A DNA stretch of 64,000 bases from Patescibacteria group bacterium UBA6241. GTDB taxonomy: Bacteria > Patescibacteriota > Minisyncoccia > Phycocordibacterales > Phycocordibacteraceae. This document shows positions 4,477-59,966 of this stretch, one piece after another. Location of the stretch: the NCBI GenBank assembly GCA_002441425.1, contig DJWB01000001.1:298712-362711 (forward strand), read 5' to 3'. The notes under the pieces were generated by a model. That model made no database searches. It worked only from the letters and a program-made list of their open reading frames with translations, and was not told where the DNA came from. Positions within the stretch are counted from its first letter, which is position 1. The number at the start of each line of letters is the position of its first letter. Both the position numbers and the translations under genes were made by a program.

Positions 4477-4481
4477 ACGAC

Positions 4482-5342: not shown

Positions 5343-5346
5343 ACAA

Positions 5347-28704: not shown

Positions 28705-28740
28705 AAAAGCCGCCAGGGTGAGCCGGCGGCTTTGGGATTA
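28702..28740. terminator. Bidirectional terminator
   Basis: AAAAAAGCCGCC-agggtgagcc-GGCGGCTTT between convergent genes. Confidence 0.6.
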
Positions 28741-29481: not shown

Positions 29482-29664
29482 TGCTTAGGATTTCTATCCA
29501 TAGAATAACATAAAAATCCTCTAAGTCAAAAATAGATTTACTTTATCCCCTTCCCATCTTGTTATTCCGTGCTGTTTGTAGCATACTGCAAATAACTCGC
29601 CGAAACTCCAAATTGCCCCTAAGCGTTCGGCATCAGCGAGGTTATTACGTATCTACAAGCCCTC

Positions 29665-30042
29665 ATGGCAACAAGCAAACTATATGTTGGCGGTATCCCA
29701 TACCGCACAACCGAGGACGAGCTCCGCACCGCTTTTGAAGAAGCAGGCGCAGTTGTATCCGCAAGCATTATTAGCGACCGCATGACCGGCCGTTCACGCG
29801 GCTTTGGTTTCGTGGAAATGGCAGACGAGGCTGGTGCCCAGGCTGCTATTGACCGTTGGGACGGAAAGGAATTTGACGGGCGCATGCTCTCAGTTTCTAA
29901 CGCTCGCCCACAGGGAGACCGACCTCCTCGCGAGGGTGGTTTCGGTGGTGGAAACCGCGGCGGAGGCTTTGGTGGCGGTAATCGTGGAGGAAACGGCGGC
30001 TTCGGCGGCGGTGACCGCGGTGGCTACCAGGGCGGCTACTAA
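29665..30042 (+). CDS. RRM-type RNA-binding protein with Gly/Arg-rich tail
   Basis: RNP2 'LYVGGIP' and RNP1 'RGFGFVEM', followed by GGFGGGNRGG repeats. Confidence 0.85.
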   Translation: MATSKLYVGGIPYRTTEDELRTAFEEAGAVVSASIISDRMTGRSRGFGFVEMADEAGAQAAIDRWDGKEFDGRMLSVSNARPQGDRPPREGGFGGGNRGGGFGGGNRGGNGGFGGGDRGGYQGGY

Positions 30043-30057
30043 TCAGTAGTTTCGCAG

Positions 30058-30090
30058 GTAAAAGCCCCTCCATTAAGGAGGGGCTTTTAC
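30058..30090 (+). terminator. Rho-independent terminator
   Basis: AAAGCCCCTCC-attaa-GGAGGGGCTTTT. Confidence 0.75.
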
Positions 30091-30119
30091 GTTACTTCCT
30101 TCTCACGTATGCTCATCTT

Positions 30120-33621: not shown

Positions 33622-34035
33622 TTGGCTGCTTTGGAGGACCACATGCGTACATATATCCACGTTGTTGGGCCCATAAATCCCGATGACGCAATCGCCGAGC
33701 TCTATGTGAGGAAGGAGCTGCCGGGAGACTTCCGCGTCCAGTTTATTGATCACGATTCGGACGTCACTCAGGTCACTGCTACAGTCGGCGGAATGACCCG
33801 TGAAGAACAAGACGCAAACCAGCAAGCCAAGGTAAGCGTTCTTGAACTGATCGGGCTTGGCCTCGTACAGATCATTCCCAATGCCACTGTGGTCGTAAAG
33901 CACGACCGAGGCATCTTCACCGAGTTCAGGAGCGAATACACCCCCAGGACGCCGCCGCCTAAATCCCCTGCTCTACGCACCCCGCGCGTAGAGCAGTTTC
34001 ATTTCCATACATGCTATGATTTTTGTATATGGTAG
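33622..34035 (+). CDS. Hypothetical protein (137 aa)
   Basis: ORF. No family recognised. Confidence 0.35.
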   Translation: MAALEDHMRTYIHVVGPINPDDAIAELYVRKELPGDFRVQFIDHDSDVTQVTATVGGMTREEQDANQQAKVSVLELIGLGLVQIIPNATVVVKHDRGIFTEFRSEYTPRTPPPKSPALRTPRVEQFHFHTCYDFCIW

Positions 34036-45397: not shown

Positions 45398-48300
45398 TTA
45401 GACGTCCGATCGGCCTTCCATAGGCTCTATATCAAGAGCAAGACCGCGGATCTGATTAGTAAGTACTGCGAACGATGCAGGAGTTCCCGCATGCGATACA
45501 GGCTCACCCTTCACGATGGCATCAAAGGTCGCAGAGCGTCCCTGAATATCATCAGACTTAATGGTGAGCATCTCACGGAGTGTGTAGGCAGCTCCATATC
45601 CAAGGAGCGCCCACACTTCCATTTCTCCAAAGCGCTGTCCTCCGTTCTGTGCCTTTCCTCCAAGCGGCTGCTGGGTGATAAGGCTGTACGGACCGATTGA
45701 GCGCATGTGGATCTTGTCCTCCACCATGTGATGCAGCTTGAGCACATACATGTAGCCCACTGATATTGGCTGCGCAAAGGCTTCTCCAGTGCGGCCATCA
45801 AAGAGCTTCATCTTGCCTGAGCGATCAAACCCTGCTGCCTCAAGCTCTCCACGAATCTCGTCAGCAGTTGCTCCTGCAAACGGAGGAACAATAGCCTGAT
45901 AGTTAAGGGTGTGTGCTGCAAGACCAAGGTGAAGCTCAAGAATCTGTCCAAGGTTCATACGTGAAGGCACACCAAGTGGAGTCAAAATGATGTCCACTGG
46001 ATTTCCGTCCTTGTCGTATGGCATGTCCTCAACAGGAAGCACGCGAGAGATAACTCCCTTGTTTCCGTGACGTCCTGCGAGCTTGTCTCCCACTGATACG
46101 TTACGAACCTGCGCTACCGTTACGACAATCTTCTTGATGATGCCGCTCTCAAGCTGGTCTCCCTGCTCGCGACTGAAGACGCGTACGCCGATAACACGGC
46201 CACGCTTTCCTCCCTCCATACGAAGTGAGGTGTCTTTCACGTCTTTCGCCTTATCTCCGAAGATAGAACGAAGGAGTCGCTCTTCAGGAGTGAGCTGCGT
46301 CTCTCCCTTAGGAGTTACCTTTCCAACGAGAATGTCTCCAGGACGTACTTCAGCTCCAATGCGCACTACTCCTTCCTCATCAAGGTTCTTCAAACGAAGT
46401 TCTCCAACGTTAGGAATGTCGTGTGTGGTTACCTCAGCACCAAGCTTGGTGTCACGCACTGCACACTCAAAGTCCTCAATGTGAACGGTGGTGAACTTAG
46501 ACTCTTCAACAAGACGCTCAGACACGATAATCGCGTCCTCATAGTTAGCGCCGCTCCAGCTCATGAATGCAACACGAACGTTCTGTCCGAGTGCCATCTG
46601 TCCCTGGTCTGATGAAGAAGCGTCTCCAAGTACGTCTCCCTTCTTAACCTTGTCTCCTGTCTTTACGATAGGACGCTGCATGAATGCAGAGTTCTGGTTG
46701 GTCTGAGTAAGACCCTGAAGCTTATACTCATGATCCTTTCCACTTGCAGGAGTAACAATAATGCGACGTGCATCTGCATATGACACAGTACCCGCTTCCT
46801 CAGCAATAATGAGACGACCTGTGTTACGTGCTGCATGTCCTTCAATACCCGTAGCAACGAGCGGTGCCTCTGGAATGAGAACCGGTGTTGCCTGCTTCTG
46901 CATGTTTGAACCCATGAGTGCACGGTTCGCATCATCATGATCCACGAAAGGAATCATCGCTGTTGCAGCTGAGAACATCTGATACGTAGACGCATCAATG
47001 TAATCAATCTCATCGCGATGAACCACAGCTGGCTCTCCTCCCTTACGAGCTTCAATAGTGTCAGGGATAATTCGTCCCTTAGCGTCAACAGGAGTTGCTG
47101 CGTGCGCTATTACATGTGACTCCTCATCAAGCGCGTTGAGGTACTCAATTTCTTCAGTAACAGTTCCCTTGGTTACCTTTGCATACGGAGTTTCAATAAC
47201 ACCGAACTCGTTCGTACGCGCATGGAGTGCGAGACGAAGGATAAGACCAATGTTTGCTCCTTCAGGAGTGTGAATTGGGCAGAGACGTCCGTAGTGCGAT
47301 GGGTGCACGTCGCGCACCTCAAAGCCTGCACGCTCGCGAGTTAGACCTCCCGGTCCAAGCGCTGAAAGCGTACGCATGTTCTCAAGCTCAGCAAGAATGT
47401 TCTGCTGATCCATGAACTGTGAGAGCTGGTTAGCAGTGAAGAACTCACGCACTGAAGCAGATAGTGGACGGGGGTTCACAAATGCCATTGGCAATGAAGT
47501 CTCAGACTCAATCGTAGACATGCGGTCCTGGATGTTTCGCTTCATGCGAGACATACCAACGCGCATACGTGCCTGGAGCAATTCTCCAACGAAACGCACA
47601 CGGCGGAAGCCGAGGTGATCAATATCGTCAGGAACAGCGTTCGGGTCCTGGTTCATGCGTGCGATCTCTCCAACGATGCGAAGAAGATCGTCCAGAGTTA
47701 GTGCGCGCTGCTCAAGTGACTTCTTGTCTGTAGGAAGAGAGAAACGAGCGTTCAAGCGATGGCGTCCAACCTTTGAGAGGTCATAGCGATCAGCAGCAAA
47801 GAGTGCGTTCACATACTGCTTTGCGTTGTCTGGGGTCGCCAAATCACCGTCGCGCATGCGGCGGTGTATTTCAACATATGCGTCCTCAACACTCTGTGCG
47901 GTGTCGTGCGCGAGTGTTGCTGTAAGTGCATTGGTTCCTACTTCGTCCCCAATGAACTTCTTTAGAATGTCTTCGCGGGTTCCAGCGCCAAATACGCTAA
48001 GAAGGTGCGTAACAGGGAATTTACGTTTGCGATCAATCTTAACGAAGATTGCACCGTCTGAATCTGATTCAATCTCAATCCATACACCACGTGCAGGAAT
48101 AATCTTCGCTCCAAAGAAGTTGCGTCCCTTAGTCTCCTCCGCAACAAAGAATGCACCGAATGAACGAGCAAGCTGAGGCACGATAGCGCGCTCAACTCCA
48201 GATACGATGAAGCTACCGTGTGGCGTCATCATCGGAATATCAGAGAGGAAAATCTCCTGAGTCTTCTCTGAACCAAAGGTCTTGTTTACGAGTGTAACTG

Positions 48301-48571
48301 AAGCCTTAAGTGGAGCTTCGTAGGTACGCATGTTCTCGCGCGCTTCCTCTTCAGTTCCTTTAGGATCACCCACCTCAAATCCGTCAAAGCGGAGTTCAAA
48401 TTTCTTTCCTGAATAATCTTGGACTGGAGAGAACTCCTTAAAGAGCTCCTTGATTCCATCGGCCAAAAGCCAATTGAAAGATTCCCGCTGGTGGCCTACC
48501 AGGTCAGGAAACTCAACACGCGGAGCGCGGTATGCGCCGAATGTCTTTGGCACGAGCTTTTTTTGCTGCAT
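45398..48571 (-). CDS. rpoB: DNA-directed RNA polymerase subunit beta
   Basis: Conserved rpoB blocks ('GEMEVWAL', 'FGEMEV'). 1057 aa. Lies immediately upstream of rpoC. Confidence 0.95.
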   Translation of the reverse strand: MQQKKLVPKTFGAYRAPRVEFPDLVGHQRESFNWLLADGIKELFKEFSPVQDYSGKKFELRFDGFEVGDPKGTEEEARENMRTYEAPLKASVTLVNKTFGSEKTQEIFLSDIPMMTPHGSFIVSGVERAIVPQLARSFGAFFVAEETKGRNFFGAKIIPARGVWIEIESDSDGAIFVKIDRKRKFPVTHLLSVFGAGTREDILKKFIGDEVGTNALTATLAHDTAQSVEDAYVEIHRRMRDGDLATPDNAKQYVNALFAADRYDLSKVGRHRLNARFSLPTDKKSLEQRALTLDDLLRIVGEIARMNQDPNAVPDDIDHLGFRRVRFVGELLQARMRVGMSRMKRNIQDRMSTIESETSLPMAFVNPRPLSASVREFFTANQLSQFMDQQNILAELENMRTLSALGPGGLTRERAGFEVRDVHPSHYGRLCPIHTPEGANIGLILRLALHARTNEFGVIETPYAKVTKGTVTEEIEYLNALDEESHVIAHAATPVDAKGRIIPDTIEARKGGEPAVVHRDEIDYIDASTYQMFSAATAMIPFVDHDDANRALMGSNMQKQATPVLIPEAPLVATGIEGHAARNTGRLIIAEEAGTVSYADARRIIVTPASGKDHEYKLQGLTQTNQNSAFMQRPIVKTGDKVKKGDVLGDASSSDQGQMALGQNVRVAFMSWSGANYEDAIIVSERLVEESKFTTVHIEDFECAVRDTKLGAEVTTHDIPNVGELRLKNLDEEGVVRIGAEVRPGDILVGKVTPKGETQLTPEERLLRSIFGDKAKDVKDTSLRMEGGKRGRVIGVRVFSREQGDQLESGIIKKIVVTVAQVRNVSVGDKLAGRHGNKGVISRVLPVEDMPYDKDGNPVDIILTPLGVPSRMNLGQILELHLGLAAHTLNYQAIVPPFAGATADEIRGELEAAGFDRSGKMKLFDGRTGEAFAQPISVGYMYVLKLHHMVEDKIHMRSIGPYSLITQQPLGGKAQNGGQRFGEMEVWALLGYGAAYTLREMLTIKSDDIQGRSATFDAIVKGEPVSHAGTPASFAVLTNQIRGLALDIEPMEGRSDV

Positions 48572-48807
48572 GTCAGGTCTGTATTATCTGGCCCCAAACG
48601 CCAAACGGGCTCATGTATGCATGAGCCGCGTCCCTCGTTATGGAGACGCTGTTTTTAAAATCGCACTTGGTTTTCTCTTCCCCTCTATCCCCCGTTACTC
48701 AATCTCGTTCCCTAAATATACCGTGAAGACACAGAAGCGGTCAAGGTGGCTGTGGAAAGGAAAAAGCGACCCTCCGAAGAGAGCCGCTTGGGGATTGCGA
48801 GATGCAA

Positions 48808-49347
48808 TCAAGATGCGGTTCGCATGGTCCAGCGCGCGGGCAGCCGAACGAAGGGTCCCCGCGGAGCGGTCTTCATCGCGAGCCAGGTGAGGCCGGCGAT
48901 GACGACGCACCCCGAGGCCACACTGCGATCGGTGGCGACCAGATAGTGCACCAGGACCATGCCGATGATCGGCAGGCCGAGCGTGCGATAGATCCGGCCC
49001 ACGTCGCGCCAGCCGATGCGCTCGCAGGTGCACGCACCTTGCGCATAAATGGCGACCGCAGTTGCCAGCATCAGGCCGAGCGAAACCGCGAAGGTGAACA
49101 TCCCCATCCACAGACTTCCGTCGGTGGGCATGGACGCCACGCTCATGGTCAGGAACGAGAAGGCGTAGGGCGTCGGCCCCTTGCCCATATCCGTCCAGCT
49201 GCTGGCCGTGTCGGTCTGAAGGAAGAAGCACAGGAAGAGCGCCGCAATCGCGATGCCCGTCAGGATAATTCCGCTCAGATCGTCCTGGCCGATGAGAAGC
49301 GCAGCAAAGATGCCGCACGCTCCCAGAAACAGTGCATGTAGTCGCAT
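48808..49347 (-). CDS. Small polytopic membrane protein encoded in a ~65% GC island
   Basis: Hydrophobic six-helix ORF. Assigned start is the second Met (MRLHALF), which is preceded by GGGGGA. The +1 and +2 frames give Arg/His-rich nonsense, so this frame is the real one. Confidence 0.5.
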   Translation of the reverse strand: MRLHALFLGACGIFAALLIGQDDLSGIILTGIAIAALFLCFFLQTDTASSWTDMGKGPTPYAFSFLTMSVASMPTDGSLWMGMFTFAVSLGLMLATAVAIYAQGACTCERIGWRDVGRIYRTLGLPIIGMVLVHYLVATDRSVASGCVVIAGLTWLAMKTAPRGPFVRLPARWTMRTAS

Positions 49348-49456
49348 TCTTAGATCCCCCAGGAACAATTTTGACATCCTGGCACAACGCCAGGTTCCCT
49401 TAAACTATAACAAATATAGGGATATTGTCAATCTTAACTCTCTGTTGTGCAATGAA

Positions 49457-49482
49457 AAAGGACGGAGAGATTCCGTCCTTTA
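49457..49482 (-). terminator. Rho-independent terminator of the 49480..49830 gene
   Basis: AAAGGACGGA-gagatt-CCGTCCTTT with an A-run upstream on the plus strand, which is a U-tract on the minus strand. Confidence 0.55.
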
Positions 49483-49830
49483 GGCATAGCCGCTTGGGTC
49501 CTCGGGTCTCCCGAGATCGTCCCTGCGTATCTGCACTGGGCCTGTCTTCATTTGTCCCCTGAGGGTAAGCGAGTACTCCAGGTTCCCAGAGACACGTTCG
49601 CGGCAGGCAACCCACGTCTTGCGATTGAAGTCCTGAAGAACAAGCTGCACAGCAAGCTCAGTGGGTGTCTCAAACATATCCGCAAAGGCCGGGAGTATTC
49701 TCCGGAAAAGCGAGACAGGCTTGTGGATCCGTTTCAGATAGCGCTGCGTTCGCACCGCTTCCTGAATTTCTGAGACACTGCTCCAGGATTTCCCAGAGAG
49801 CGTGTCGTAGACTTCGTCAAATAAGGACAT
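49480..49830 (-). CDS. Hypothetical protein (116 aa)
   Basis: ORF at ~55% GC between trmD and the GC-rich membrane gene. No family recognised. Confidence 0.4.
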   Translation of the reverse strand: MSLFDEVYDTLSGKSWSSVSEIQEAVRTQRYLKRIHKPVSLFRRILPAFADMFETPTELAVQLVLQDFNRKTWVACRERVSGNLEYSLTLRGQMKTGPVQIRRDDLGRPEDPSGYA

Positions 49831-49877
49831 GGCGCCCCCCTTTCCGAGCCGATTAAACTATATAAAACGCTTTTTGA

Positions 49878-50534
49878 CTACTTCTTTCGTTTCGCTCTGA
49901 ATTCATCAATCTTGGCATGATTTCCTGTCTGTAGAACTTTAGGGACACGATAGTTCTTTCCTTCCCACTCAATATTCTCAGGACGTGTGTACACCGCAGG
50001 CGAAGCCACGCGTCTCTCCTCAACCGATTCGTCTTTCCCGAGTACTCCCGGAAGTCTACGAGTTATCGCATCAACCATCGCAAGCGCAGGAACTTCTCCT
50101 CCTGTGTACACTGCCTCACCTACGGCAAATGTCTTAACGGGTGCCATAGTCTTAAGCATCTTGAGCGCACGATCATCAATACCCTCATAACGCCCACAAA
50201 CAAATGCAACTTCGTCATAAGTGGCGAGCTGATCTGCATCTTTGTTCGTGAACTGTTTTCCAGAAGGACTGAACCAGACGATAAGCTTTGTTCCCTTTCT
50301 CCTCCCAAAGGCTTTCTTAACTGCCTTCACTACAGGGAGTGCCGTCATAACCATACCTGGACCTCCCCCGTACGGTCGCTCGTCAACTTTTCCCCATTTG
50401 TTTGTTACGAAATCTCTCGGGCTTTGATACGAGACGGAGATCTTTTTGTTTGTGCGTGCTCTGCCCAATATTGATGCAGAGAGATATGCATCACATGCTT
50501 CTGGGAAAAGTGTTATGAGATGAAATTTCAACAT
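49878..50534 (-). CDS. trmD: tRNA (guanine37-N1)-methyltransferase
   Basis: 'ITLFPE', 'DERPYGGGPGMVM', 'FVCGRYEGIDDR', 'TGGEVPALAMVDAITR', 'GNHAKIDEFR'. Confidence 0.9.
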   Translation of the reverse strand: MLKFHLITLFPEACDAYLSASILGRARTNKKISVSYQSPRDFVTNKWGKVDERPYGGGPGMVMTALPVVKAVKKAFGRRKGTKLIVWFSPSGKQFTNKDADQLATYDEVAFVCGRYEGIDDRALKMLKTMAPVKTFAVGEAVYTGGEVPALAMVDAITRRLPGVLGKDESVEERRVASPAVYTRPENIEWEGKNYRVPKVLQTGNHAKIDEFRAKRKK

Positions 50535-50561
50535 AAGCCAAAAAGCGGCAGAGATGCCGCT

Positions 50562-50867
50562 TTATTGTATGCCCTCAAGTGCGTCTTCAAGAGTTTTAGT
50601 ATCTTCTTGGAAGCGCTTTCCTCCTGAAGGCTCATTTATCTTTAAGTTCACGCGCGCGTTGTGCTTCATTCCTACCACACGCAATAGGGTGCGGAGTGCT
50701 TTAGCTATGTTGCCATCACGTCCAATTATCTTACCCATGTCCTCAGGAGCAACCGTGAGAGTAAGAAGTACTCCCATCTCGTCTACTGAACGGGTAATGA
50801 CTACTGCCTCCTGGTTATCAACCAGAGCTTTAATCGTGAAGTCTAGAAATGCGTGATCTTGTTCCAT
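50562..50867 (-). CDS. KH-domain RNA-binding protein (YlqC/UPF0109)
   Basis: 'KIIGRDGNIAKALRTLL' KH GXXG motif. Sits between rpsP and trmD. Confidence 0.75.
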   Translation of the reverse strand: MEQDHAFLDFTIKALVDNQEAVVITRSVDEMGVLLTLTVAPEDMGKIIGRDGNIAKALRTLLRVVGMKHNARVNLKINEPSGGKRFQEDTKTLEDALEGIQ

Positions 50868-50937
50868 AGGTCGTGTCGTTACTGAAATCGGAATATATGT
50901 GGAATGGTAATCAAGGCGCTCGTGCGCCTATACTGCA

Positions 50938-51399
50938 CTACGCAGCAACCTCTTCTTCCTTTGGCTCTTCTGGAGCCGCCTCTTCTACTGGAGTCTCCTC
51001 AGGAGTAGCTTCCTCTGCAGGTGCTTCTACAGCCTCAGCTGCTTTTGCAGCTTCAGCCTTTGCTGCCTCTTCTGCGGCTGCCTTTGCAGCTGCTTCTTCC
51101 TCAGCCTTCTTAGCTACGTTCTTCTCCAAGTTCTTCTTTGAGATAACAGCAACTTTCTCTCCTGAAAGAACACCGTTCTTGATAAGAAGGTTCTTTAGAG
51201 ATGGAGATACCTGAGCTCCCTTTGCAATCCATTCCTGGATGCGCTCTGCCTTGTAGGTAATCTGCTTAGTCTTTGGGTTGTAGGTACCCACAAGATCAAC
51301 GTACTTTCCGGCCTTAGGGCCAGCAGTCTTTTCAAGGACTGCCATACGGAAAGAGGCGTCGTTCTTACGACCAATGCGCTGGAATCGGATCATCAACAT
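50938..51399 (-). CDS. rpsP: 30S ribosomal protein S16 with Ala/Glu/Pro-rich C-terminal extension
   Basis: 'MLMIRFQRIGRKNDASFRMAV...GTYNP' is the S16 core. The ~60-aa AAKAEEAA... tail is low-complexity. Start assigned to the internal Met. Confidence 0.85.
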   Translation of the reverse strand: MLMIRFQRIGRKNDASFRMAVLEKTAGPKAGKYVDLVGTYNPKTKQITYKAERIQEWIAKGAQVSPSLKNLLIKNGVLSGEKVAVISKKNLEKNVAKKAEEEAAAKAAAEEAAKAEAAKAAEAVEAPAEEATPEETPVEEAAPEEPKEEEVAA

Positions 51400-51505
51400 A
51401 TGTAGGCGGAAGAGTACCAAAGGAATGCCTTGCCGTCAAAGAATTCCCTAATAGCTCAGTACCCTGCATAGCATAAACGTCTCAATCTGCTACAGTTCAG
51501 AGAAC

Positions 51506-53470
51506 ATGCCGATACAGAAAGACACTATCTACGAGGGCCCGATTACCATTATTAAGACCGGAAAGGGTTTCTTTTCATACGACCCAAACGAGGACGATCT
51601 CTTTATTCCTGGAGAGGGACTCGGAGGTGCCTTCCCTGGAGACACCGTTAAAGTTCAGTTTACAGGCTATGAGCTAGACCGCCGCACAGGCAAGAAGCGC
51701 CCTTCAGGACGCGTTGTTGAGGTTATAGAGCGCAACCGCGAGACCTTTGTTGGAAAGCTTTTTGAGAACAAGGAGGAGAACCTCACTATGCTCGCTCCAG
51801 ACTGGAAGAAGATGTACGTACCTTTTGTTGTTAAGGGAGAGTCGCTTCCTATTGGACATAAAGTTGTGATTCGCTTTAAGGGATGGAACAAGCATCAGCC
51901 ATACCCTTGGGGAGAACTTGAGGAGATTATCGGTCCTGCTGGAGAGCACGAGACTGAGATGCGCGCACTCGCCCTGTCTCAGGGATTCCGTTCTGACTTC
52001 CCGCCTGGCGTACAAAAGGAAGCACAGTATTTGGAAGAGCACGGCAAGCAGATGCTCAAGGATGGTGCCGATGAAGGTATCGCTGCCGGAACTCGCAAGG
52101 ATTTCCGTGATGTAACCACCTTCACCATTGACCCCTTTGACGCAAAGGATTTTGACGACGCACTCTCTGTACGCACGCTTCCAAATGGAAACGTAGAGGT
52201 AGGAGTCCACATTGCAGACGTCTCACACTTTGTACGTCCCGGTACTTCAATTGATCAGGAGGCTAGAAAGCGATCAACATCGGTATATCTCGTAGACCGC
52301 ACCATTCCGATGCTTCCTCATGTTCTCTCAACGAATCTCTGTTCCCTAAATCCAAACGAAGACCGTCTTGCAATGTCGGCCGTCTTTGAACTAGACCAGG
52401 AAGCTGGAATAGTTTCTCGTTGGTTTGGTCCCACGGTTATTCACTCAGACAAGCGCTTCACGTACGAAGATGCGCAATCTGTACTTGATCAGCAAGCAGG
52501 AGAATTACTTGAGGAGTTAAATATTCTCAAGGCGTACGCAGACAAGATTCGCGCACGCAGAACACGGAAAGGGGCTATTGCCTTTGATACTCCTGAGGTA
52601 AAGATTCTTCTTGATGAGACAGGTAAGCCAATAGAGATAGTGCTTAAGGAGCGTAGAGATACGAACCTTCTTATTGAGGACTTCATGCTTCTAGCAAATG
52701 AGGCAGTTGCGGAGTTTCTTACCTCTGAAATGAAGAAGGCGCATATTACGGGAGGGACTATATACCGTGTACATGATTCTCCAGACGCAGACCGTATAGA
52801 GAATCTCGCTCAGTTCCTTCAGGTTATGGGATACAACCTGCCTGTTGCTGCAGGAAAAGTTAAGGGAGACGATGTGAATACGCTTCTCAAGCAGGTTGAG
52901 GGAAAGCCAGAGGAATACCTCATTAAAATGGCGACACTTCGCTCTATGGCAAAGGCGGTGTACAGCACCAAGAACCTTGGACACTTTAGCCTTGCCTTTG
53001 AAGCCTACACGCACTTCACTTCCCCTATCCGCCGCTACCCCGATCTTCTTATTCACCGACTCGCCAAGCACTACACTATTAGCGCTGCATTTGGAAAGAA
53101 CGAGTACGCAGAGCTAGATCAGCTTGCTACACATGCTTCTGAGAGAGAAACTGCTGCTGTTGAGGCAGAGCGAGACTCTATAAAGATGAAGCAGGTTGAG
53201 TACATGAGCGAACACATTGGAGAAGAGTTTGCTGCAGTTATCTCAGGAGTTTCTGACAGAGGTATCTTTGTTGAACTCACAGAGAGCCGTGCTGAAGGTA
53301 TGATTCGCATTCGTGACCTTGGAGACGACTACTTCGTATATGACGAAAAGAGATATCGTATTGTTGGCGAGAAGACACAAACCGTATACGCACTTGGCGA
53401 CCCGGTTCGTGTAAAGCTGCTTGCGGCACGACTCGCTGAACGGGAACTAGATTTTGCACTCGTTGTCTAG
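51506..53470 (+). CDS. rnr: Ribonuclease R (RNB-family exoribonuclease with S1 domain)
   Basis: RNB catalytic motifs ('DAKDFDDALS', 'YRVHDSP', 'FTSPIRRYPDLLIHR') and C-terminal S1 ('GMIRIRDLGDDYF'). Confidence 0.9.
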   Translation: MPIQKDTIYEGPITIIKTGKGFFSYDPNEDDLFIPGEGLGGAFPGDTVKVQFTGYELDRRTGKKRPSGRVVEVIERNRETFVGKLFENKEENLTMLAPDWKKMYVPFVVKGESLPIGHKVVIRFKGWNKHQPYPWGELEEIIGPAGEHETEMRALALSQGFRSDFPPGVQKEAQYLEEHGKQMLKDGADEGIAAGTRKDFRDVTTFTIDPFDAKDFDDALSVRTLPNGNVEVGVHIADVSHFVRPGTSIDQEARKRSTSVYLVDRTIPMLPHVLSTNLCSLNPNEDRLAMSAVFELDQEAGIVSRWFGPTVIHSDKRFTYEDAQSVLDQQAGELLEELNILKAYADKIRARRTRKGAIAFDTPEVKILLDETGKPIEIVLKERRDTNLLIEDFMLLANEAVAEFLTSEMKKAHITGGTIYRVHDSPDADRIENLAQFLQVMGYNLPVAAGKVKGDDVNTLLKQVEGKPEEYLIKMATLRSMAKAVYSTKNLGHFSLAFEAYTHFTSPIRRYPDLLIHRLAKHYTISAAFGKNEYAELDQLATHASERETAAVEAERDSIKMKQVEYMSEHIGEEFAAVISGVSDRGIFVELTESRAEGMIRIRDLGDDYFVYDEKRYRIVGEKTQTVYALGDPVRVKLLAARLAERELDFALVV

Positions 53471-53525
53471 CAAAAGCCCAAGGAAACCCTTGGGCTTTTT
53501 GCTTATACTCTGGAGTAATCCCCTG

Positions 53526-53780
53526 CTAATTTATATTCTTCCGTATCCACCACCTCTTAATAGCAGGAATTGTAAGTGTTGAAAGAAGAAATCCTAAAGT
53601 TGGAATGATAGCTCCAAGATAGAAATCGGACACACCAATCACGTAGAGAGCTAAAGACGCAACTATATAAGTAATTGCCGAGACTAAAAGCTTTCTAAAA
53701 AGACTGGTCTCCCAAGCTTTGTCCGCTTCTACGCGAGCATTCCTTTCCTGTATTGCTTCAAGTTCCTTTTCAAAATCCAT
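53526..53780 (-). CDS. Small membrane protein (84 aa)
   Basis: Two TM helices. Start and stop are coupled with gdhA. Confidence 0.4.
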   Translation of the reverse strand: MDFEKELEAIQERNARVEADKAWETSLFRKLLVSAITYIVASLALYVIGVSDFYLGAIIPTLGFLLSTLTIPAIKRWWIRKNIN

Positions 53781-53789
53781 ACCAGCTTC

Positions 53790-55037
53790 CTAAAGCAGCC
53801 CTCTCCCTCGCATCGCCTCTGCAATCCGTTCCAGTGCAACTGCGTATGACGCGTCTCTGAGAGAAATGCCTCGCTCAGCAGCAAAGTCTGCAACACTCTT
53901 ATATGCCTTTCGCATTGTTGTCTGCATTCCCTCCCGCACAATATCAGCGCTCCAGTAATATCCAGAACGATTCTGCACCCATTCAAAATATGAGACGGTA
54001 ACCCCGCCAGCGTTCGCAAGCACGTCCGGAATAACCACCACACCTTGTGCCGCAAGTGCTGCGTCTGCTTCTGGTGTTATAGGTCCGTTAGCTACTTCAA
54101 GAATAATGCCCGCCTGTATGCTTTCAACATTCTCTTTAGTTATTTGCTCTTCAAGCGCAGCAGGTACCAAGACATCAGCAGCAACAGACAATACTTCTTC
54201 AACAGTTCCTACCGTTACACCCTCCATGTGCGCTCCTGCATCAGGTATGTGATTCCCTGCCTCTTTAAAGGCAAGCACTTTATCCATATCAAGTCCGTCT
54301 ACTGAGGAAAGCGTCCCTTTGCTGTCTGCGATTGAAACAACGCTCATACCCATTGAGTACAGGAGATGCGCAGCCTGCCCGCCAGCGTTCCCTGCTCCTT
54401 GAACTGCTGCTGTGAGAACATCTGCCTCCAGGTGTCTGTCTTCAAGAAGTGCCTTCAGTACTTCTACTGCGCCATCTGCAGTTGCAGTGTCTCTTCCCAA
54501 AGAACCTCCCAGAGAAAGAGGCTTGCCAGTAATCATTGCTGGCTGGCTCTTGCCCGTAATACGCTCATACTCGTCTAGCATCACTCCCATAATCTCTGAG
54601 TTGGTATACACATCAGGAGCAGGAATATCTTGATCAGGACCAATGTGATCAGAGAATGCCTTTACATATTCACGCGCTAGCAAGTGAAGATCCTTTTGAG
54701 AAAGTTTCTTTGGATCAACTGCAACACCTCCCTTTGCTCCTCCAAGCGGGATACCCACAACCGCACACTTAATTGCCATCATGGCAGCGAGCGCTGACAC
54801 TTCGTCTTCATCCGCCTCAGGATGAAAGCGAATGCCTCCCTTGTAGGGTCCTCTCGCATTATTAAACTGCACGCGATATGCGGGGAATGTTCCTGTACCT
54901 CCCGCCTCAAGCGGGATAGTAAGTTCTGCTCGCAATACCCGATTAGGGGTCATGAGCTTTTTCTGAACTTCCTCCGAGAACCCAAGAAGCGTACTTGCTT
55001 TGCCTACGTTCTGTTTAAAGTATTCAAATGCTGCCAT
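53790..55037 (-). CDS. gdhA: Glutamate dehydrogenase (Glu/Leu/Phe/Val dehydrogenase family)
   Basis: 'KGGIRFHP' lysine motif and the NAD(P)-binding 'GAGNAGG'. Confidence 0.85.
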   Translation of the reverse strand: MAAFEYFKQNVGKASTLLGFSEEVQKKLMTPNRVLRAELTIPLEAGGTGTFPAYRVQFNNARGPYKGGIRFHPEADEDEVSALAAMMAIKCAVVGIPLGGAKGGVAVDPKKLSQKDLHLLAREYVKAFSDHIGPDQDIPAPDVYTNSEIMGVMLDEYERITGKSQPAMITGKPLSLGGSLGRDTATADGAVEVLKALLEDRHLEADVLTAAVQGAGNAGGQAAHLLYSMGMSVVSIADSKGTLSSVDGLDMDKVLAFKEAGNHIPDAGAHMEGVTVGTVEEVLSVAADVLVPAALEEQITKENVESIQAGIILEVANGPITPEADAALAAQGVVVIPDVLANAGGVTVSYFEWVQNRSGYYWSADIVREGMQTTMRKAYKSVADFAAERGISLRDASYAVALERIAEAMRGRGLL

Positions 55038-55098
55038 AGATATTTGGATTAGTACCTAAAGCATACGCCTCAAATTGCAGGCGTCCATGTGGAGAAGA

Positions 55099-57315
55099 TT
55101 ACTTCGCAACTGCCTGTGCCTCCTCAAATTTAACTGAAAGAAGCTTGGAAATACCGTCTGCACCCATAGTTACACCGTATAGGATGCTTGCCCTGCTCAT
55201 GGTTTCTCTATTGTGTGTAATAACAATGAGCTGAGACTTATGAGAGAGATTCTCAATCATGTCCCCGTACCTGCGGCTATTAGCCTCGTCCAGCGCCGCA
55301 TCAGTCTCGTCCAGAATAAGGAACGGAGGCGGGTTCACCTGACTCATAGCAAAGATAAGTGCAATTGATGTAAGTGCTCGCTCTCCTCCTGAAAGCTGCA
55401 TCAAAGACTGCACGCGCTTCTTTGGCAGATGCACTGAGATTTCAATACCTGGTTTCTGGTTTGGCTTTCGCTTCACCTCTGTCTCGTACTCATCCTCCTC
55501 GTCCTCGCTTCCAGGTTGCGCAAACTCTTCAAGCACGAGCTTTGCGCCTCCTCCTCCGAACATAAGTCCGAAGAACTCTCCAAAGGATGCGTTTACCTTT
55601 GCAAGCCCCTCTGCGAAGCTCTTCTGGAGTTCTCCATCAAGCTCTGCAATTAACGAACGAAGACCTGCAGCGGATGCGGCCAAGTCCTCAAGCTCTGTTG
55701 CAAGGAAGGACTCACGTTCTGTTGCCTCCTTGTATTCGCTGCGGACATCTTCTCCAGAGCCCCCTGCCTCTTCAACACGAATCTTAAGTCTCTCCATCGC
55801 GCGCTTGCGATCCTCCTGCACTCTGCGGTCTTCATGCGGAAGCTCAGATACAGCTTCATACGAAAGTGCATTCACACCCACAAGTGCAACTGCTTCCCTG
55901 CGATTCTGCTCAAGTTCTTCAGCGAGATAATCAAGTTGACCCAAATGTGCTGAGTGTCGTGCAAGCTCAGACTCAACCTTTGCTTTGCTCTCAGCCAAAT
56001 CTAGGAGACGGCGATTCTGCTCTCTCCCTGTTTCTTCATGCGCCATCATTCGCTCGCGTGCATTAGCAAGTTCTGAGCGTGCGCGTTCAGTTTCTTCCGT
56101 TAGCTCCGCATCCTTTCGCACCATGTCTTCTCGCTTCCCTTCAAGCTCCTTTGCCATGAGCTCCTCATCTGCCATGAAATCATCAGCGGGTCCCGCGTAT
56201 CGCTCAAAGAATGCAGCCATAGCGTTCCGCAAGCTCTGTATTGCGGCGTGAATTGCACCAGGCTCAGCGCCCTCAACAAGCGCTACTTGAGTATCTACCT
56301 CTTCCTTAAGAGCAGACAGATCCTCTCTCGGTATTTTTACGTACGGGTCTCTTGCAACCGCAACACTGCGCTTCTTTGCTTCGTTAAGTGCGCCTTCAAT
56401 ACGGCCCAAATCTCTCGCAAGTACTGAGCGCTCTGCAGTTATACGGTCTAGATTGCGCTCCGCCTGACGCACCGCTTCTGAGCGCTTCATTCCTTCGCTA
56501 TCTGTTGTTGCTCGCTCTTCAAACAAGGCAAGCTCTGCCTCAACTGCACGTAAGCGACCCGTTGCTTCTTGTGTTGCCGCTTCTGTTCTCTCCCGCTCAA
56601 TACGAATGTATGCCTCCTCAATTGCAAAATATGTTTGCGAAGCTGCTCTCAACTCCTTAGCTAGCTCCTCTGCTCGTTCAAGTTTTTCTACTTGCTTCTG
56701 CAGAAAACGAATATGTGGCGCAATCTCTCTGCGAAGAGCTTCTACCTGCGCAACATTCTCTTCAGTTCGCTCAAGTTTACGTTCTGCTTCTTGTTTCTTA
56801 AACTCAAATACTTTTAGACCAAGTGCATCCTCCAGCATCGCACGTCGCTCCCGCGGTTGCGCGGTTAGGATACGATCTGCCTCTCCTTGAGAAATAATAT
56901 GGTGTCCGGTCTCTCCAATGTTTGCTGATGCCAATAACTCCTGTACATCACGCAGACGCACCTTTGACCCATTAATTGCATATTCGCTGGCGCCATCTCT
57001 AAATACTGCACGTTCTATTGAAACTTCATCAAACTCAAGCTTTGGGAATATGCGCGCACGATTATCAAATACGATTGTTACCGCAGCGCGATTGGCACGA
57101 GGCGTTATGTTTGAACCAGACCAAATAAGATCCTCGCTGCGTTTTCCGCGCATTGATTTCATGGACTGCTCACCAAGTGCAAAACGGAACGCCTCTGCAA
57201 CGTTTGATTTTCCTGACCCGTTTGGTCCAACCACTGACGTTACAGAACTAGAAAAATCCAAGACCGTTTTCTTTGCAAACGATTTGAATCCCGCGATCTC
57301 TAGTCGCTTTAGCAT
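55099..57315 (-). CDS. SMC-like ATPase, short form without recognisable hinge
   Basis: SMC N-terminus 'LEIAGFKSFAKKTVLDF...GPNGSGKSNVAEAFRFALGEQS' and SMC C-terminus 'FFGLMFGGGGAKL', 'LSGGERALTSIALIFA', 'LILDETDAALD'. Only 738 aa, with a continuous coiled coil between the heads. Confidence 0.7.
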   Translation of the reverse strand: MLKRLEIAGFKSFAKKTVLDFSSSVTSVVGPNGSGKSNVAEAFRFALGEQSMKSMRGKRSEDLIWSGSNITPRANRAAVTIVFDNRARIFPKLEFDEVSIERAVFRDGASEYAINGSKVRLRDVQELLASANIGETGHHIISQGEADRILTAQPRERRAMLEDALGLKVFEFKKQEAERKLERTEENVAQVEALRREIAPHIRFLQKQVEKLERAEELAKELRAASQTYFAIEEAYIRIERERTEAATQEATGRLRAVEAELALFEERATTDSEGMKRSEAVRQAERNLDRITAERSVLARDLGRIEGALNEAKKRSVAVARDPYVKIPREDLSALKEEVDTQVALVEGAEPGAIHAAIQSLRNAMAAFFERYAGPADDFMADEELMAKELEGKREDMVRKDAELTEETERARSELANARERMMAHEETGREQNRRLLDLAESKAKVESELARHSAHLGQLDYLAEELEQNRREAVALVGVNALSYEAVSELPHEDRRVQEDRKRAMERLKIRVEEAGGSGEDVRSEYKEATERESFLATELEDLAASAAGLRSLIAELDGELQKSFAEGLAKVNASFGEFFGLMFGGGGAKLVLEEFAQPGSEDEEDEYETEVKRKPNQKPGIEISVHLPKKRVQSLMQLSGGERALTSIALIFAMSQVNPPPFLILDETDAALDEANSRRYGDMIENLSHKSQLIVITHNRETMSRASILYGVTMGADGISKLLSVKFEEAQAVAK

Positions 57316-57417
57316 TGTGATTTAGTATACCGTGCGATTGATTGAGAACGGAGCAGGATATGTAGAGAAAACCGCCCGCAGCCTGGATAGGCTGGGGCGA
57401 TTGAATTGCAACTTGGT

Positions 57418-57849
57418 TCAGGTGGAGTTTTGAAACCCACCCTGTCTGTCCACGCCAAGCCTGACGAGAAACCAGAGCAGAGCGCAGAGAACGAGCACCA
57501 GATCCAGCGTTCCGGCCATGAAGTATGCGTCTCCGAGCGACGCACGCGCAGCCATGAAGATCGTGGAGGACACGAGCGCCGTCACGAGGACTGAAATGCC
57601 GGCTCCAAGCAGGACGGGGCCGCGCTCCTCCAATGGCTTGAGGAATTCCCCGAGGACTCCGGTTCCGTACAGCAGGAACAAGAGCATGGTGGCCGGCATG
57701 GCCCACGCGATGATGAGCGACGCGTGCTCAGGCAGATTGCCTGCCATGTGCTGGATAAAGCCGAACTGGCCCGCACCCATCCCCAGAAAGAAGACAGCTC
57801 CGATGCAGAGCATCAGGAGCAACATTCCAAGAAACTTAACCGTATTCAT
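57418..57849 (-). CDS. Small polytopic membrane protein encoded in a ~63% GC island
   Basis: Start MNTVKFL with a perfect SD (GGAGGG-6nt-ATG). Four or five TM helices. Located between rnc and the smc-like gene. Confidence 0.55.
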   Translation of the reverse strand: MNTVKFLGMLLLMLCIGAVFFLGMGAGQFGFIQHMAGNLPEHASLIIAWAMPATMLLFLLYGTGVLGEFLKPLEERGPVLLGAGISVLVTALVSSTIFMAARASLGDAYFMAGTLDLVLVLCALLWFLVRLGVDRQGGFQNST

Positions 57850-57912
57850 CTTCTTCCCTCCAAGGGCACTCCACAGCGGAGTGGGATCAATCCACGTATA
57901 CAATACGCTACT

Positions 57913-58596
57913 TTATGACATTTTGTCAAGCGCTCCTTGCGCCGCAATCTGTTCTGCTTCTTGTTTGCTTGGACCTTCGCCTCGTGCAATTTCTTTGTCT
58001 CCCAAAAATACACCTATGGTAAATCGCTTGTCGTGGTCTGGACCCTCTTCTGCGAGCGTCTTGTATGTAGGAGTAATTCCCTTCTTCTCCTGAGCAACTT
58101 CCTGGAAGTGGCTCTTCGCATCCTGCCAGGTTCGCTTTGCTATAACCTCCTCAATCTTTGGATTCAGGTTCTTAGCTATGAATGCTTCTGCTGCTTCGTA
58201 TCCTTGATCCAAATAAATAGCGCCAAGAATTGCCTCAAACGCATTCGCAAGAATAATCTGGCGGGCTCTCCCCGTGTCCTTTCGCTCTCCTTTAGAGAGA
58301 AGGAGCATATCGTTAACACCAAGACGCTCTGCTTCTTCAGCCAGCGAATAGGTATTAACCAGCGCCGCTCTGTACGCAGTTAACTCTCCCTCAGGCTTGT
58401 GTGGGAAGCGGGTGTACAGGAAATGAGTAACTGCAAGCTCAAGGACAGCGTCTCCGAGAAACTCCAGACGCTCGTTATGATTCCCGGCAGTACGGTGCTC
58501 GTTTAGGTAGGACCTATGCGTAAGAGCCTCAATCAATAGATCAAGGTTCTTAAACTGGACTCCGAGGAGTGCTGCATGTGCGGCAAAATCAGACAT
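57913..58596 (-). CDS. rnc: Ribonuclease III
   Basis: 'ERLEFLGDAVLELAVT' signature and a C-terminal dsRBD. Confidence 0.9.
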   Translation of the reverse strand: MSDFAAHAALLGVQFKNLDLLIEALTHRSYLNEHRTAGNHNERLEFLGDAVLELAVTHFLYTRFPHKPEGELTAYRAALVNTYSLAEEAERLGVNDMLLLSKGERKDTGRARQIILANAFEAILGAIYLDQGYEAAEAFIAKNLNPKIEEVIAKRTWQDAKSHFQEVAQEKKGITPTYKTLAEEGPDHDKRFTIGVFLGDKEIARGEGPSKQEAEQIAAQGALDKMS

Positions 58597-58631
58597 AAGT
58601 CCGTTATACCAGAAAAGTGCGTAATAGGAAC

Positions 58632-59576
58632 CTAGGCACGAGTGCGAGCAGTGTCTAGGAGTTTCTGTACTGCTTCAGTAACAATAGGGAGCATATCGTC
58701 ATAAAAGTTAAGATCCAGGATGTCTGTGAGTCTGAACCAGCGCGCATCGTCCAGTCCTCCCTTCTTTTCTAGCTTGATCTCCTCATATTCAGACTCTGCG
58801 AGGAAATAGGATACATGCTTGCGCATCTTTCCGTGTTCAGGATGTGAAGCAATGTACTCATTCTCTCCAATCTTGCTGCGTATGGTTACATCAAGACCGA
58901 GTTCCTCTTTAATTTCTCTAACGGTTCCCTCCTCAACATTCTCTCCTTCCTCAATCTTTCCCTTAGAAAGGGTCCAGTGCCCAAAGACATCGTGTACGAG
59001 TGCAAGATAGTACTGGCCTTCATGATGCGCATACACAATAGCGCCTCCAAGCTGCTGCAAGGGCAGGTCTTCCCTACGTACTCGTTCTTTCTTTCCTGTC
59101 TCTTCCTTCCCTGGCTCTCCGAGTTCTTTGTACACGGCTCCAAGTACTCCGTTTACAAAACGCCCTGAGGAATCTCCTCCAAATACTTTGGCAAGTTCAA
59201 TTGCTTCGTTAATAGCAACCTTTGCAGGAACCTGAGAACGATCTGAGAACAGAAGCTCATACAAACCAATACGAAGAATGTTTCTATCAACAGGAGCAAT
59301 ACGGTCTAGCGGCCAATCTGGTGCAGCCTTTGTTATTACCAAATCAAGATCAGGGCGTTTTGCGAGCACTCCCTGAAGGAGCAGTTCCATAAATGGCTTG
59401 TCCGTATCATCTCCTCCAAACTCTTCAACGTTTCTCTGAAGCGCAGTCTCTGCCTCCTCAATAGACGCATTAGACGTGTCCCACTCAAAGAGGGTTTGCA
59501 GAACAACGGAACGAGCAAGATGCCGATTAGCCATAATGAAAAGAGCGTTATAGACAGGATACCCTAAAAACAACAC
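58632..59576 (-). CDS. nusB: NusB antitermination factor fused to C-terminal NUDIX hydrolase (likely start at internal Met, coordinate 59534)
   Basis: NusB: 'ARSVVLQTLFEWD...INEAIELAKVFGGDSSGRFVNGVLGAV'. Nudix box 'GKIEEGENVEEGTVREIKEELGL' (GX5EX7REUXEEXGU) in the C-terminal ~150 aa. Confidence 0.7.
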   Translation of the reverse strand: MLFLGYPVYNALFIMANRHLARSVVLQTLFEWDTSNASIEEAETALQRNVEEFGGDDTDKPFMELLLQGVLAKRPDLDLVITKAAPDWPLDRIAPVDRNILRIGLYELLFSDRSQVPAKVAINEAIELAKVFGGDSSGRFVNGVLGAVYKELGEPGKEETGKKERVRREDLPLQQLGGAIVYAHHEGQYYLALVHDVFGHWTLSKGKIEEGENVEEGTVREIKEELGLDVTIRSKIGENEYIASHPEHGKMRKHVSYFLAESEYEEIKLEKKGGLDDARWFRLTDILDLNFYDDMLPIVTEAVQKLLDTARTRA

Positions 59577-59600
59577 TACGCGCCAGGGGCGCGTAGTGTG
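59563..59600 (-). terminator. Rho-independent terminator downstream of rpmF
   Basis: Minus-strand RNA ACACUACGCGCC-ccu-GGCGCGUAGUGU followed by UGUUUUU. Confidence 0.6.
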
Positions 59601-59624
59601 TATAAGTATTTTGAGTTGCTTGGT

Positions 59625-59966
59625 TTACGCTCCTCCTCCAAATCCTGAACGTGTGTTTGAACGAGCCTTCGTTACCTTTCCAAGGAGAGATGGTTTCTTC
59701 TGCTCCTTCTTTGTACCCTCTGGAGTAGTGTCTGCAATCTCAACTGCAGAGCGCTCTGCACGTCCTTCCTTCTTACCCTTCTTCTCAGCCTTCACCTTAG
59801 GAGTGATGATCTGCTTGCCACGGTACATACCAGTAGCCTCATCAATACGGTGAGGCTGGCGTACATTTCCTGACTCCTTATCAACAACAAGAGCCCCGTC
59901 CGTAAGCGCATGGTGGCTTCGGCGGTTGCGGGTATGAGAACGGGTGTGGCGCATTCGTACAGACAT
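59625..59966 (-). CDS. rpmF: 50S ribosomal protein L32 (non-zinc form) with Lys-rich C-terminal extension
   Basis: 'MSVRMRHTRSHTRNRRSHHALT' matches the L32 N-terminus. No Cys pairs. The extension is a Lys/Glu-rich tail. Confidence 0.7.
   Translation of the reverse strand: MSVRMRHTRSHTRNRRSHHALTDGALVVDKESGNVRQPHRIDEATGMYRGKQIITPKVKAEKKGKKEGRAERSAVEIADTTPEGTKKEQKKPSLLGKVTKARSNTRSGFGGGA

Follow-up and report, generated by a model that had tools for sequence, protein, structure and literature searches.

Foreign DNA in bacteria is usually AT-richer than the genome that receives it. Once horizontally acquired, genes are said to ameliorate, as Lawrence and Ochman reportedly described in 1997, their third-position composition drifting toward that of the host. 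The CPR bacteria, or Patescibacteria, have tiny genomes with a large proportion of unknown membrane proteins, and their way of life hinges on the cell surface. A search of the literature on GC3 in CPR bacteria and on small membrane proteins of Patescibacteria gave nothing relevant; the closest described systems are found elsewhere. Hotspots of horizontal gene transfer that lack mobile elements are known, in which recombination in the core genes on either side drives the transfer (Oliveira, Touchon, Cury and Rocha, 2017; PMC5635113). Species-specific orphan genes of bacteria have been surveyed as well: their GC and GC3s values track those of the host nearly one-to-one (rho 0.96), and they are less often transmembrane (Genome Res 2024; PMC11293555).

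The stretch analysed here (the window, 64 kb in length) contains two intervals between housekeeping genes that act as slots for single small membrane-protein genes, gene A between rnc and an smc-like gene and gene B between trmD and rpoB. As in the hotspots of Oliveira et al. (2017), syntenic core genes enclose a fixed interval whose gene content varies, no integrase or transposase is present, the cargo has an atypical composition, and recombination in the flanking DNA is seen directly at slot B. The present case departs from those hotspots in its cargo, one tiny gene that has its own candidate promoter and terminator and exceeds the host in GC. It is found in a reduced CPR genome, and the swap at slot B involves essentially the coding sequence only, within a conserved expression frame. 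Genes A and B also resemble the species-specific orphans in being short and taxonomically restricted, in their non-optimal codons and in being under weak but real purifying selection (PMC11293555). They differ from typical orphans in being polytopic and in exceeding the host GC3 by about 0.3, a shift opposite in direction to that of the usual AT-rich foreign DNA. Among known locus types, the rnc|smc locus is a modestly unusual variant.

The mean GC of the window is 47.7%, with a standard deviation of 3.8% in 400-nt sliding windows, and just three peaks in the 64 kb rise more than three standard deviations above it: 29661-30100, 48601-49400 and 57341-57880. The GC excursion that the sequence-only reading reported between rnc and smc therefore holds quantitatively. 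Its value of about 63% fits only the core, where GC reaches a maximum of 62% (57500-57799); over 57330-57912 it is 57.5%. That reading also proposed a search for further copies with the same GC anomaly. The remaining peak in the window (29665-30042) is no third copy: it belongs to an RRM protein whose tail is Gly-rich. Gene A has a GC content of 59%, with 0.61, 0.41 and 0.75 at the three codon positions, against a GC3 of 0.43-0.46 in its neighbours rnc and smc. Island B is more GC3-rich still (0.79-0.81). Nearly all of the excess in gene A lies at third codon positions and survives correction for amino acids, which makes it a codon-usage effect. Given amino-acid content and the codon usage of the window, the observed GC3 is 0.735 against an expected 0.40 for gene A (z 8.1), and 0.775 against 0.38 for gene B (z 10.9), which rules out amino-acid composition as the source. 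A general membrane-protein effect is also ruled out, since eight further membrane proteins of the window are ordinary in this respect (z between -2.5 and +3.6). The codons that A and B prefer are the rarest in the window: CTG is used at 0.43 against 0.09, GTC at 0.45 against 0.07 and ATC at 0.78 against 0.25. Such usage suggests that gene A may be expressed at a low level.

Gene A (57418-57849, minus strand) is the only gene of a unit that spans 57364-57929. Upstream lies rnc, encoding RNase III (57913-58596; Pfam PF14622, PF00636 and PF00035; GC3 0.46), and downstream a short SMC-like ATPase of 738 aa (55099-57315; Pfam SMC_N, 1e-68). All three genes are on the minus strand, and gene A, as had been claimed, interrupts a pair that is tightly adjacent in many relatives. 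A candidate sigma-70-like promoter (57900-57929, minus strand) matches the consensus at 10 of 12 positions; its -35 element, TTGACA (57924-57929), falls within the last rnc codons and is separated by an 18-nt spacer from the -10 element, TATTGT (57900-57905). This promoter-like sequence is kept in the related genomes L001, L003, L085 and L006. Between the rnc stop codon and the Shine-Dalgarno sequence, alignment and folding indicate a leader hairpin, CACUCC-GCUGU-GGAGUG (57867-57883, minus strand). In the equivalent place L001 has CAUCCCG-CGC-CGGGAUG, with both sides of the stem changed; the gene A hairpin alone is not significant against shuffled sequences (z about -1.1). The Shine-Dalgarno sequence GGAGGG (57856-57861, minus strand) stands 6 nt before the ATG, exactly as first read. 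The unit ends in an intrinsic terminator (57364-57400, minus strand), predicted by folding as a 13-bp G+C-rich hairpin followed by UUUUCUCU, with a dG of -23.5 kcal/mol and a z of -5.6; none of 200 shuffles was as good. L001 has this terminator too (z -5.75), and L085 has one with a different stem sequence. Beyond it, the smc-like gene has a -10-like sequence of its own, GGTATACT (57324-57331), conserved among the relatives.

Comparison with its homologs establishes gene A as a genuine coding gene, because third-position substitutions dominate and omega is about 0.2. Relative to the L003 copy, which is 83% identical, the differences per codon position are 18, 15 and 41 and omega is 0.20; for the L001 copy, 56% identical, omega is 0.23. 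The full range of 0.18-0.23 signifies purifying selection. The product has 143 aa, one fewer than the 144 first given. Hydropathy bears out the proposal of a small polytopic membrane protein, with four hydrophobic helices at about residues 6-32, 43-63, 79-103 and 108-132. It is probably an inner-membrane protein with both termini inside. A loop motif, LFL(L/F)(Y/F)GxG(V/I)..(E/N)(F/W)(L/M)KP, is conserved in the family. AlphaFold (AF2) predicts a four-helix bundle from five sequences, with a pLDDT of 71 and a pTM of 0.57 in one of five models only; from three sequences the model is poor (pLDDT 55). A Foldseek comparison of the predicted fold with the PDB returned only generic helical bundles (best E 1.6, TM below 0.46), and the protein has no match in Pfam, NCBIfam, PADLOC or PHROGs at E < 0.005 or curated cut-offs.

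The gene A family is a new and very small orphan family. Word-indexed searching of 5.8 billion proteins yielded three clusters; an HMM was run exhaustively against 1.84 billion representatives, and its three matches added two clusters, for five in total. A profile built from the five sequences found no new members, and a metagenome scan for further A-family loci returned just a duplicate of L087. All members sit at rnc|smc in related Patescibacteria/Paceibacteria genomes of the Parcubacteria/Kaiserbacteria neighbourhood. Judged by rnc and smc, the genomes compared are related as ((window, L003), L001), then L005, with L085 and L006 forming a GC-rich sister pair. Between the window and L003, dS is 0.55 in gene A and 0.52 in the flanks; between the window and L001 the corresponding values are 1.33 and 1.27-1.39. 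This agreement implies that gene A has co-diverged with its neighbours since the lineages split. The protein itself evolves 10-15 times faster than theirs (dN 0.30 against 0.02-0.03), and its identity falls to 34% between genomes whose rnc genes are 93% identical. In the close relative L005, with an rnc 92% identical, the segment from the rnc stop to the terminator stem and T-run (57373-57919 in the window, from the alignment), about 547 bp of the gene A unit, is replaced by about 6 nt. Gene A is thus dispensable. With A present in the low-GC clade as well as in the GC-rich pair, it is more parsimonious to assume that L005 lost the gene than that it was gained separately. The flanks of slot A show neither a recombination breakpoint nor hitch-hiking of GC3. 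Island A is more aptly seen as a gene long established in a variable slot and since lost from one relative.

The variability of the slot extends beyond the A family. In 58 of 80 rnc loci taken from species representatives, smc follows downstream in the same orientation; the two genes are separated by at most 170 bp in 28 of these and by 170-2000 bp in 29. Among genomes with an rnc at least 70% identical, 11 slots are empty and 16 occupied. The occupied gaps usually hold a same-strand, strongly hydrophobic ORF of 60-150 aa with an SD-like motif and a terminator of its own. By similarity the occupants divide into the A family, a family shared by L007 and L010, and several singletons. Much the same is seen at the trmD|rpoB interval: several genomes have it empty, at 240-320 bp, and L014, L019 and L057 carry GC3-rich hydrophobic ORFs in it. 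Apart from the A, L007/L010 and B families, neither BLASTP nor hhalign found similarity across occupant groups, slots or lineages. The GC3 of the occupants is 0.60-0.88 against backgrounds of 0.43-0.80, and essentially all of the approximately 21 ORFs examined are at or above background (one at -0.01). In both intergenic slots, relatives differ through the gain, loss or exchange of small genes.

At slot B the exchange can be followed more closely. The second island, first noticed at a distance of 8 kb, is real: gene B, at 48808-49347 or 49377, lies on the same strand as gene A and likewise between housekeeping genes. The choice between the two starts falls on ATG 49347 and not ATG 49377 as the probable one, because the leader is conserved up to that codon and a GGGGGA (49355-49360) lies 7 nt upstream. 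Read from there (48808-49347, minus strand), gene B encodes a polytopic membrane protein of 179 aa with a GC3 of 0.81; substitutions at third positions and an omega of 0.18-0.33 mark it as coding. Its 5' frame (49378-49431, minus strand), identified by conservation, comprises a promoter-like TTGACA-16-TATAGT (49404-49431) and a leader hairpin, CCUGGCGUUGUGCCAGG (49378-49394). The terminator, GCGGCUCUC-UUCG-GAGGGUCGC followed by UUUUU (48761-48787, minus strand), is identical in the window, L005 and L001. Adjoining B is o116 (49480-49830, minus strand), a conserved orphan of 116 aa with a GC3 of 0.63 (z 4.2), found by sequence comparison in the four closest genomes only. L001 shares with the window the o116 terminator, the promoter-like site, leader hairpin, SD and downstream terminator of slot B, and the rpoB promoter. 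Within this frame it carries an unalignable polytopic protein of 203 aa, B', with a GC3 of 0.725, and the replacement runs from the start codon to about 20 nt beyond the stop.

The copies of gene B in the window, L004 and L005 are 89-93% identical and differ by a dS of 0.21-0.26, against 0.5 to more than 1.2 in the flanking genes of the same lineages. When the window is compared with L005, sliding identity climbs from about 0.80 elsewhere to 0.90-0.95 over about 50100-48740, which delimits a recombination tract of about 1.4 kb (48740-50100) containing the 3' end of trmD, o116 and gene B. The high-identity tract and the low dS indicate that gene B moved among the lineages after their divergence. 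At slot A, where gene and flanks have the same dS, no recombination reaching into the flanks is seen. The description of the islands as mobile is thus right for B, which spread after the lineages had diverged, and not demonstrably so for A, which co-diverged with its flanks. No GC-rich homolog of gene B is known.

The islands have two attributes of genomic islands, atypical composition (GC3 z of 8-11) and variable presence (A is absent from L005, B is replaced in L001). Their neighbours are all housekeeping genes (nusB-NUDIX, rnc, smc-like, gdh, rnr, rpsP, trmD and rpoB), with no integrase, transposase or recombinase in or next to the islands. Neither target-site duplications nor terminal repeats were found at the islands, where repeats are short and at chance level, and a search for tRNA or tmRNA attachment sites was negative, Rfam giving no match across the whole window. 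The boundaries of A and B share just the -10-like CACGGTATA of the downstream smc and rpoB promoters. Against an integron-type cassette speak the lack of a shared attC-like site at these boundaries and the promoter-like sites that A and B each have.

The sequence-only reading held that the two proteins may be paralogs and that one mobile or host-derived gene family had been inserted independently at two housekeeping loci. What speaks for this is the presence, 8 kb apart and on the same strand, of two GC3-rich genes for small membrane proteins, each between housekeeping genes and each variably present among relatives. The paralogy did not survive comparison: the best BLASTP E value is 12, and hhalign of A (five sequences) against B (three) gives a probability of 0.13% and an E of 0.43, in agreement with a repeat of the analysis. 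In architecture, A has 143 aa and four TM helices and B 179 aa and at least four hydrophobic segments with other spacing, as judged by hydropathy. As the proteins are not paralogs, the account of one family inserted twice is wrong. The common boundary sequence, repeats, integrase or tRNA that such insertion might have left are missing from both islands. A host-derived cargo finds no support either, since the searches of 1.84 and 5.8 billion sequences place homologs only in a handful of related Paceibacteria, at a constant locus, where A co-diverges with its flanks. The donor of gene A or B is not identifiable. In practical terms, the description should be corrected: the two islands do not share a gene family and contain no mobile element, and nothing points to a host donor. 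We regard a single inserted family as very improbable. An artefact has almost no probability at all. GC-rich DNA does give long ORFs in several frames, so that a spurious ORF might be suspected, as might an assembly chimera with a GC-rich relative, but the same gene with the same flanks occurs in independent assemblies from JGI, ENA and NCBI, and the codon-position pattern of substitution together with an omega of about 0.2 fits a real coding gene.

How A and B came by their high GC3 is the main question. The explanation we prefer, which we hold about as probable as all other accounts together, is that A and B are accessory cassettes in recombination hotspots, and that A entered from a GC-rich relative and is now ameliorating. 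Cassette A would have been introduced, or re-seeded, into the low-GC lineage from such a relative by homologous recombination across the conserved flanks. The entry would date to before the split of the window and L001, and A would have been slowly losing GC3 since then. Island B, a cassette unrelated to A, occupies the second slot (o116|rpoB), and there such exchange is directly visible. The evidence that favours introgression followed by amelioration includes the codon match to GC-rich sisters and a net excess of S>W changes at background rates. The codon usage (RSCU) of A and B together correlates with that of the housekeeping genes of the GC-rich sister L085, whose GC is 60% (r = 0.77), and not with that of the genes of the window (r = -0.13). 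In the GC-rich sisters the A-family GC3 is 0.88 against a background of 0.77 (L085) and 0.78 against 0.69 (L006). When third-position changes in A are polarised with L001 as outgroup, the branches of the window and L003 show 14 S>W and 6-7 W>S changes, although with only about 20 events 14:6 departs from 1:1 at a p of about 0.1 only; with L085 as outgroup the counts are 29 and 6. The per-site rates in A (about 0.14 for S>W and 0.15-0.18 for W>S) are like those of rnc (about 0.16 each), which together with the excess of S>W changes suggests a net loss of GC from gene A. The GC3 values also fall in the order of apparent residence time: B (0.81), A (0.75), o116 (0.63) and background (0.45). In third positions that are off those of the host, and in a net S>W change at background per-site rates, gene A behaves as amelioration is said to predict. 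It departs from the classical case in that the putative donors are sister lineages of one family-level clade, with one locus shared by donor-like and recipient genomes. Gene A has kept a GC3 of 0.71-0.75 in three lineages over a dS of at least 1.3, a saturated value; on a rough estimate, neutral decay then calls for a GC3 of about 0.84 when the window and L001 split. This is within the range of the GC-rich copies, and is possible but high.

The retention of a high GC3 over such a divergence is one of the reasons to consider that it may be intrinsic to these genes, kept by selection (for instance on the kinetics of translation as the protein enters the membrane, or on the stability of the mRNA) or by GC-biased gene conversion in a recombination-prone slot, with no foreign origin. 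Occupants of the slots have a GC3 of 0.60-0.88 whatever the background, and are at or above it even in GC-rich genomes, where the excess is 0.09-0.10; this hints at an intrinsic cause and goes against introgression. Biased conversion would moreover have its opportunity at slot B, which is actively recombining. Several observations run the other way. Strong synonymous selection would be expected to lower the dS of A relative to its flanks, which is not seen, and the polarised changes, though few, are net S>W at background per-site rates. The eight other membrane proteins of the window are ordinary in GC3, and the 3' end of trmD, although it lies inside the recombination tract, is not GC-enriched. 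We give the intrinsic explanation a lesser but appreciable chance. The slot ORFs could instead have arisen in situ, either de novo from intergenic DNA or by fast divergence, B and B' then being one gene changed beyond recognition. The finding that the same slots contain, from lineage to lineage, small hydrophobic ORFs unrelated to one another would fit such an origin, as would the restriction of the B/B' difference to the coding sequence plus or minus about 20 nt, between a conserved leader and terminator, and the drop of A to 34% identity where rnc is 93% identical. It is hard to reconcile with purifying selection on both genes (omega 0.18-0.33), with a codon usage that fits GC-rich genomes and not the local composition, and with the 89-93% identity of B among lineages more diverged at rnc than the window and L001 are. 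In addition, candidates for de novo origin have elsewhere been found to have a lower GC than other orphan genes (PMC11293555). We consider an origin in situ unlikely. Somewhat less remote, if still speculative, is the idea that Paceibacteria maintain fixed 'expression sockets' between housekeeping genes, into which coding sequences for small membrane proteins are swapped with CDS precision from a GC3-rich pool independent of the host. The socket would consist of promoter, leader hairpin, SD and terminator, and natural transformation might be the source of supply. Were this true, it would be an undescribed integrase-free cassette system that diversifies the envelope of episymbiotic CPR bacteria.

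The GC3 signature offers an inexpensive way to find accessory envelope genes of CPR/Patescibacteria by composition. If the pattern proves to be genome-wide, the implication would be either introgression among sister lineages that differ in GC or a constraint, so far unrecognised, that acts on genes of this kind.

As to function, we infer that the gene A product is an accessory envelope protein. Its turnover suggests a role in conflict or at an interface, for example in immunity or exclusion or in contact with a host; a role in RNA processing or chromosome segregation is not favoured. Small polytopic immunity proteins of membrane-active bacteriocins, such as those of the colicin A/E1 type, are accessory proteins of 110-180 aa with 3-4 TM helices and rapid turnover. 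Gene A may be likened to bacteriocin immunity proteins in size, topology and turnover only; unlike them, it has no adjacent toxin gene, and it has no similarity to them in sequence, profile or fold. An RNA gene or overlapping element at gene A was considered and rejected, there being no Rfam match and no reduction of dS in the gene. The long antisense ORF at 57518-58093 was likewise set aside: it shares third positions with gene A and is explained by the missing Tyr, His and Gln codons of A.

Genes B and B', which occupy the slot between o116 and rpoB in the window and L005 and in the related locus L001, respectively, cannot be aligned with each other (window 48793-49354 versus L001 18238-18875). 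The promoter, leader hairpin and SD sequence are 85-100% conserved between window/L005 and L001 as far as the start codon, and so is the terminator, starting about 20 nt past the stop codon. The replacement is confined essentially to the CDS.

Gene B also belongs to a high-identity tract of about 1.4 kb (48740-50100) that covers the 3' end of trmD, o116 and B. Identity between the window and L005 is 90-95% inside this tract and about 80% around it, and dS is 0.25 in the tract versus 1.2-2.9 in the flanking genes. High identity together with low dS relative to the flanking genes points to recent homologous recombination between lineages. The gene o116 itself (49480-49830, minus strand) encodes a conserved soluble orphan protein of 116 aa that is without a match in Pfam. 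Its GC3 is 0.63 (z 4.2, z being the excess over amino-acid-corrected expectation). It is seen in the four closest genomes only, and is uncalled in the NCBI annotation of L001.

The rnc-smc slot, which holds gene A in the window, can stack cassettes, since in some relatives (L013, 10675-11696, and L014, 10678-11561) it carries two or three small ORFs that each have a terminator of their own. The motif CACGGTATA(C/T)T is common to the sites before smc (57324-57334) and rpoB (48717-48725), and upstream of smc it is kept in dozens of relatives; it is likely the -10 element of housekeeping promoters in this clade. The SMC-like gene (55099-57315, minus strand) encodes 738 aa, with Pfam SMC_N over residues 1-723 and the hinge domain absent among the Pfam matches listed. 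By its length and the lack of a listed hinge match, the product is a short SMC-like ATPase rather than a canonical SMC of about 1,200 aa. Upstream of rnc lies a NusB-NUDIX fusion (58632-59576, minus strand), assigned from precomputed Pfam matches to its counterparts in L001 and L002.

L002, a public contig (JGI 3300001592 Draft_10000238), is 99.9% identical to window positions 47429-59966, but 11 indels in it split smc (182 + 552 aa) and truncate trmD. The window appears either to be a corrected form of this contig or to derive from the other contig with the same protein.

Other compositional outliers are present in the window. A low-GC island (3520-6093, plus strand; GC 37-40%) holds a DpnII-type restriction-modification system, in which the DpnII endonuclease is accompanied by two methylases, one a D12-class N6-adenine methyltransferase and the other an N6/N4 methylase. 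The third GC peak above 3 SD (29665-30042, plus strand) encodes an RNA-binding protein of the RRM type whose tail is rich in Gly and Arg; GGN codons are the source of its GC excess, and its GC3 is ordinary. GC3 is moderately elevated (z 4-5) in three more genes: 28738-29481 (minus), 33622-34035 (plus) and 14034-15068 (minus). Two encode hypothetical proteins without a Pfam match and one the ribonucleotide reductase small chain. All three could be older acquisitions in which amelioration, the proposed slow drift toward host composition, is partly complete.
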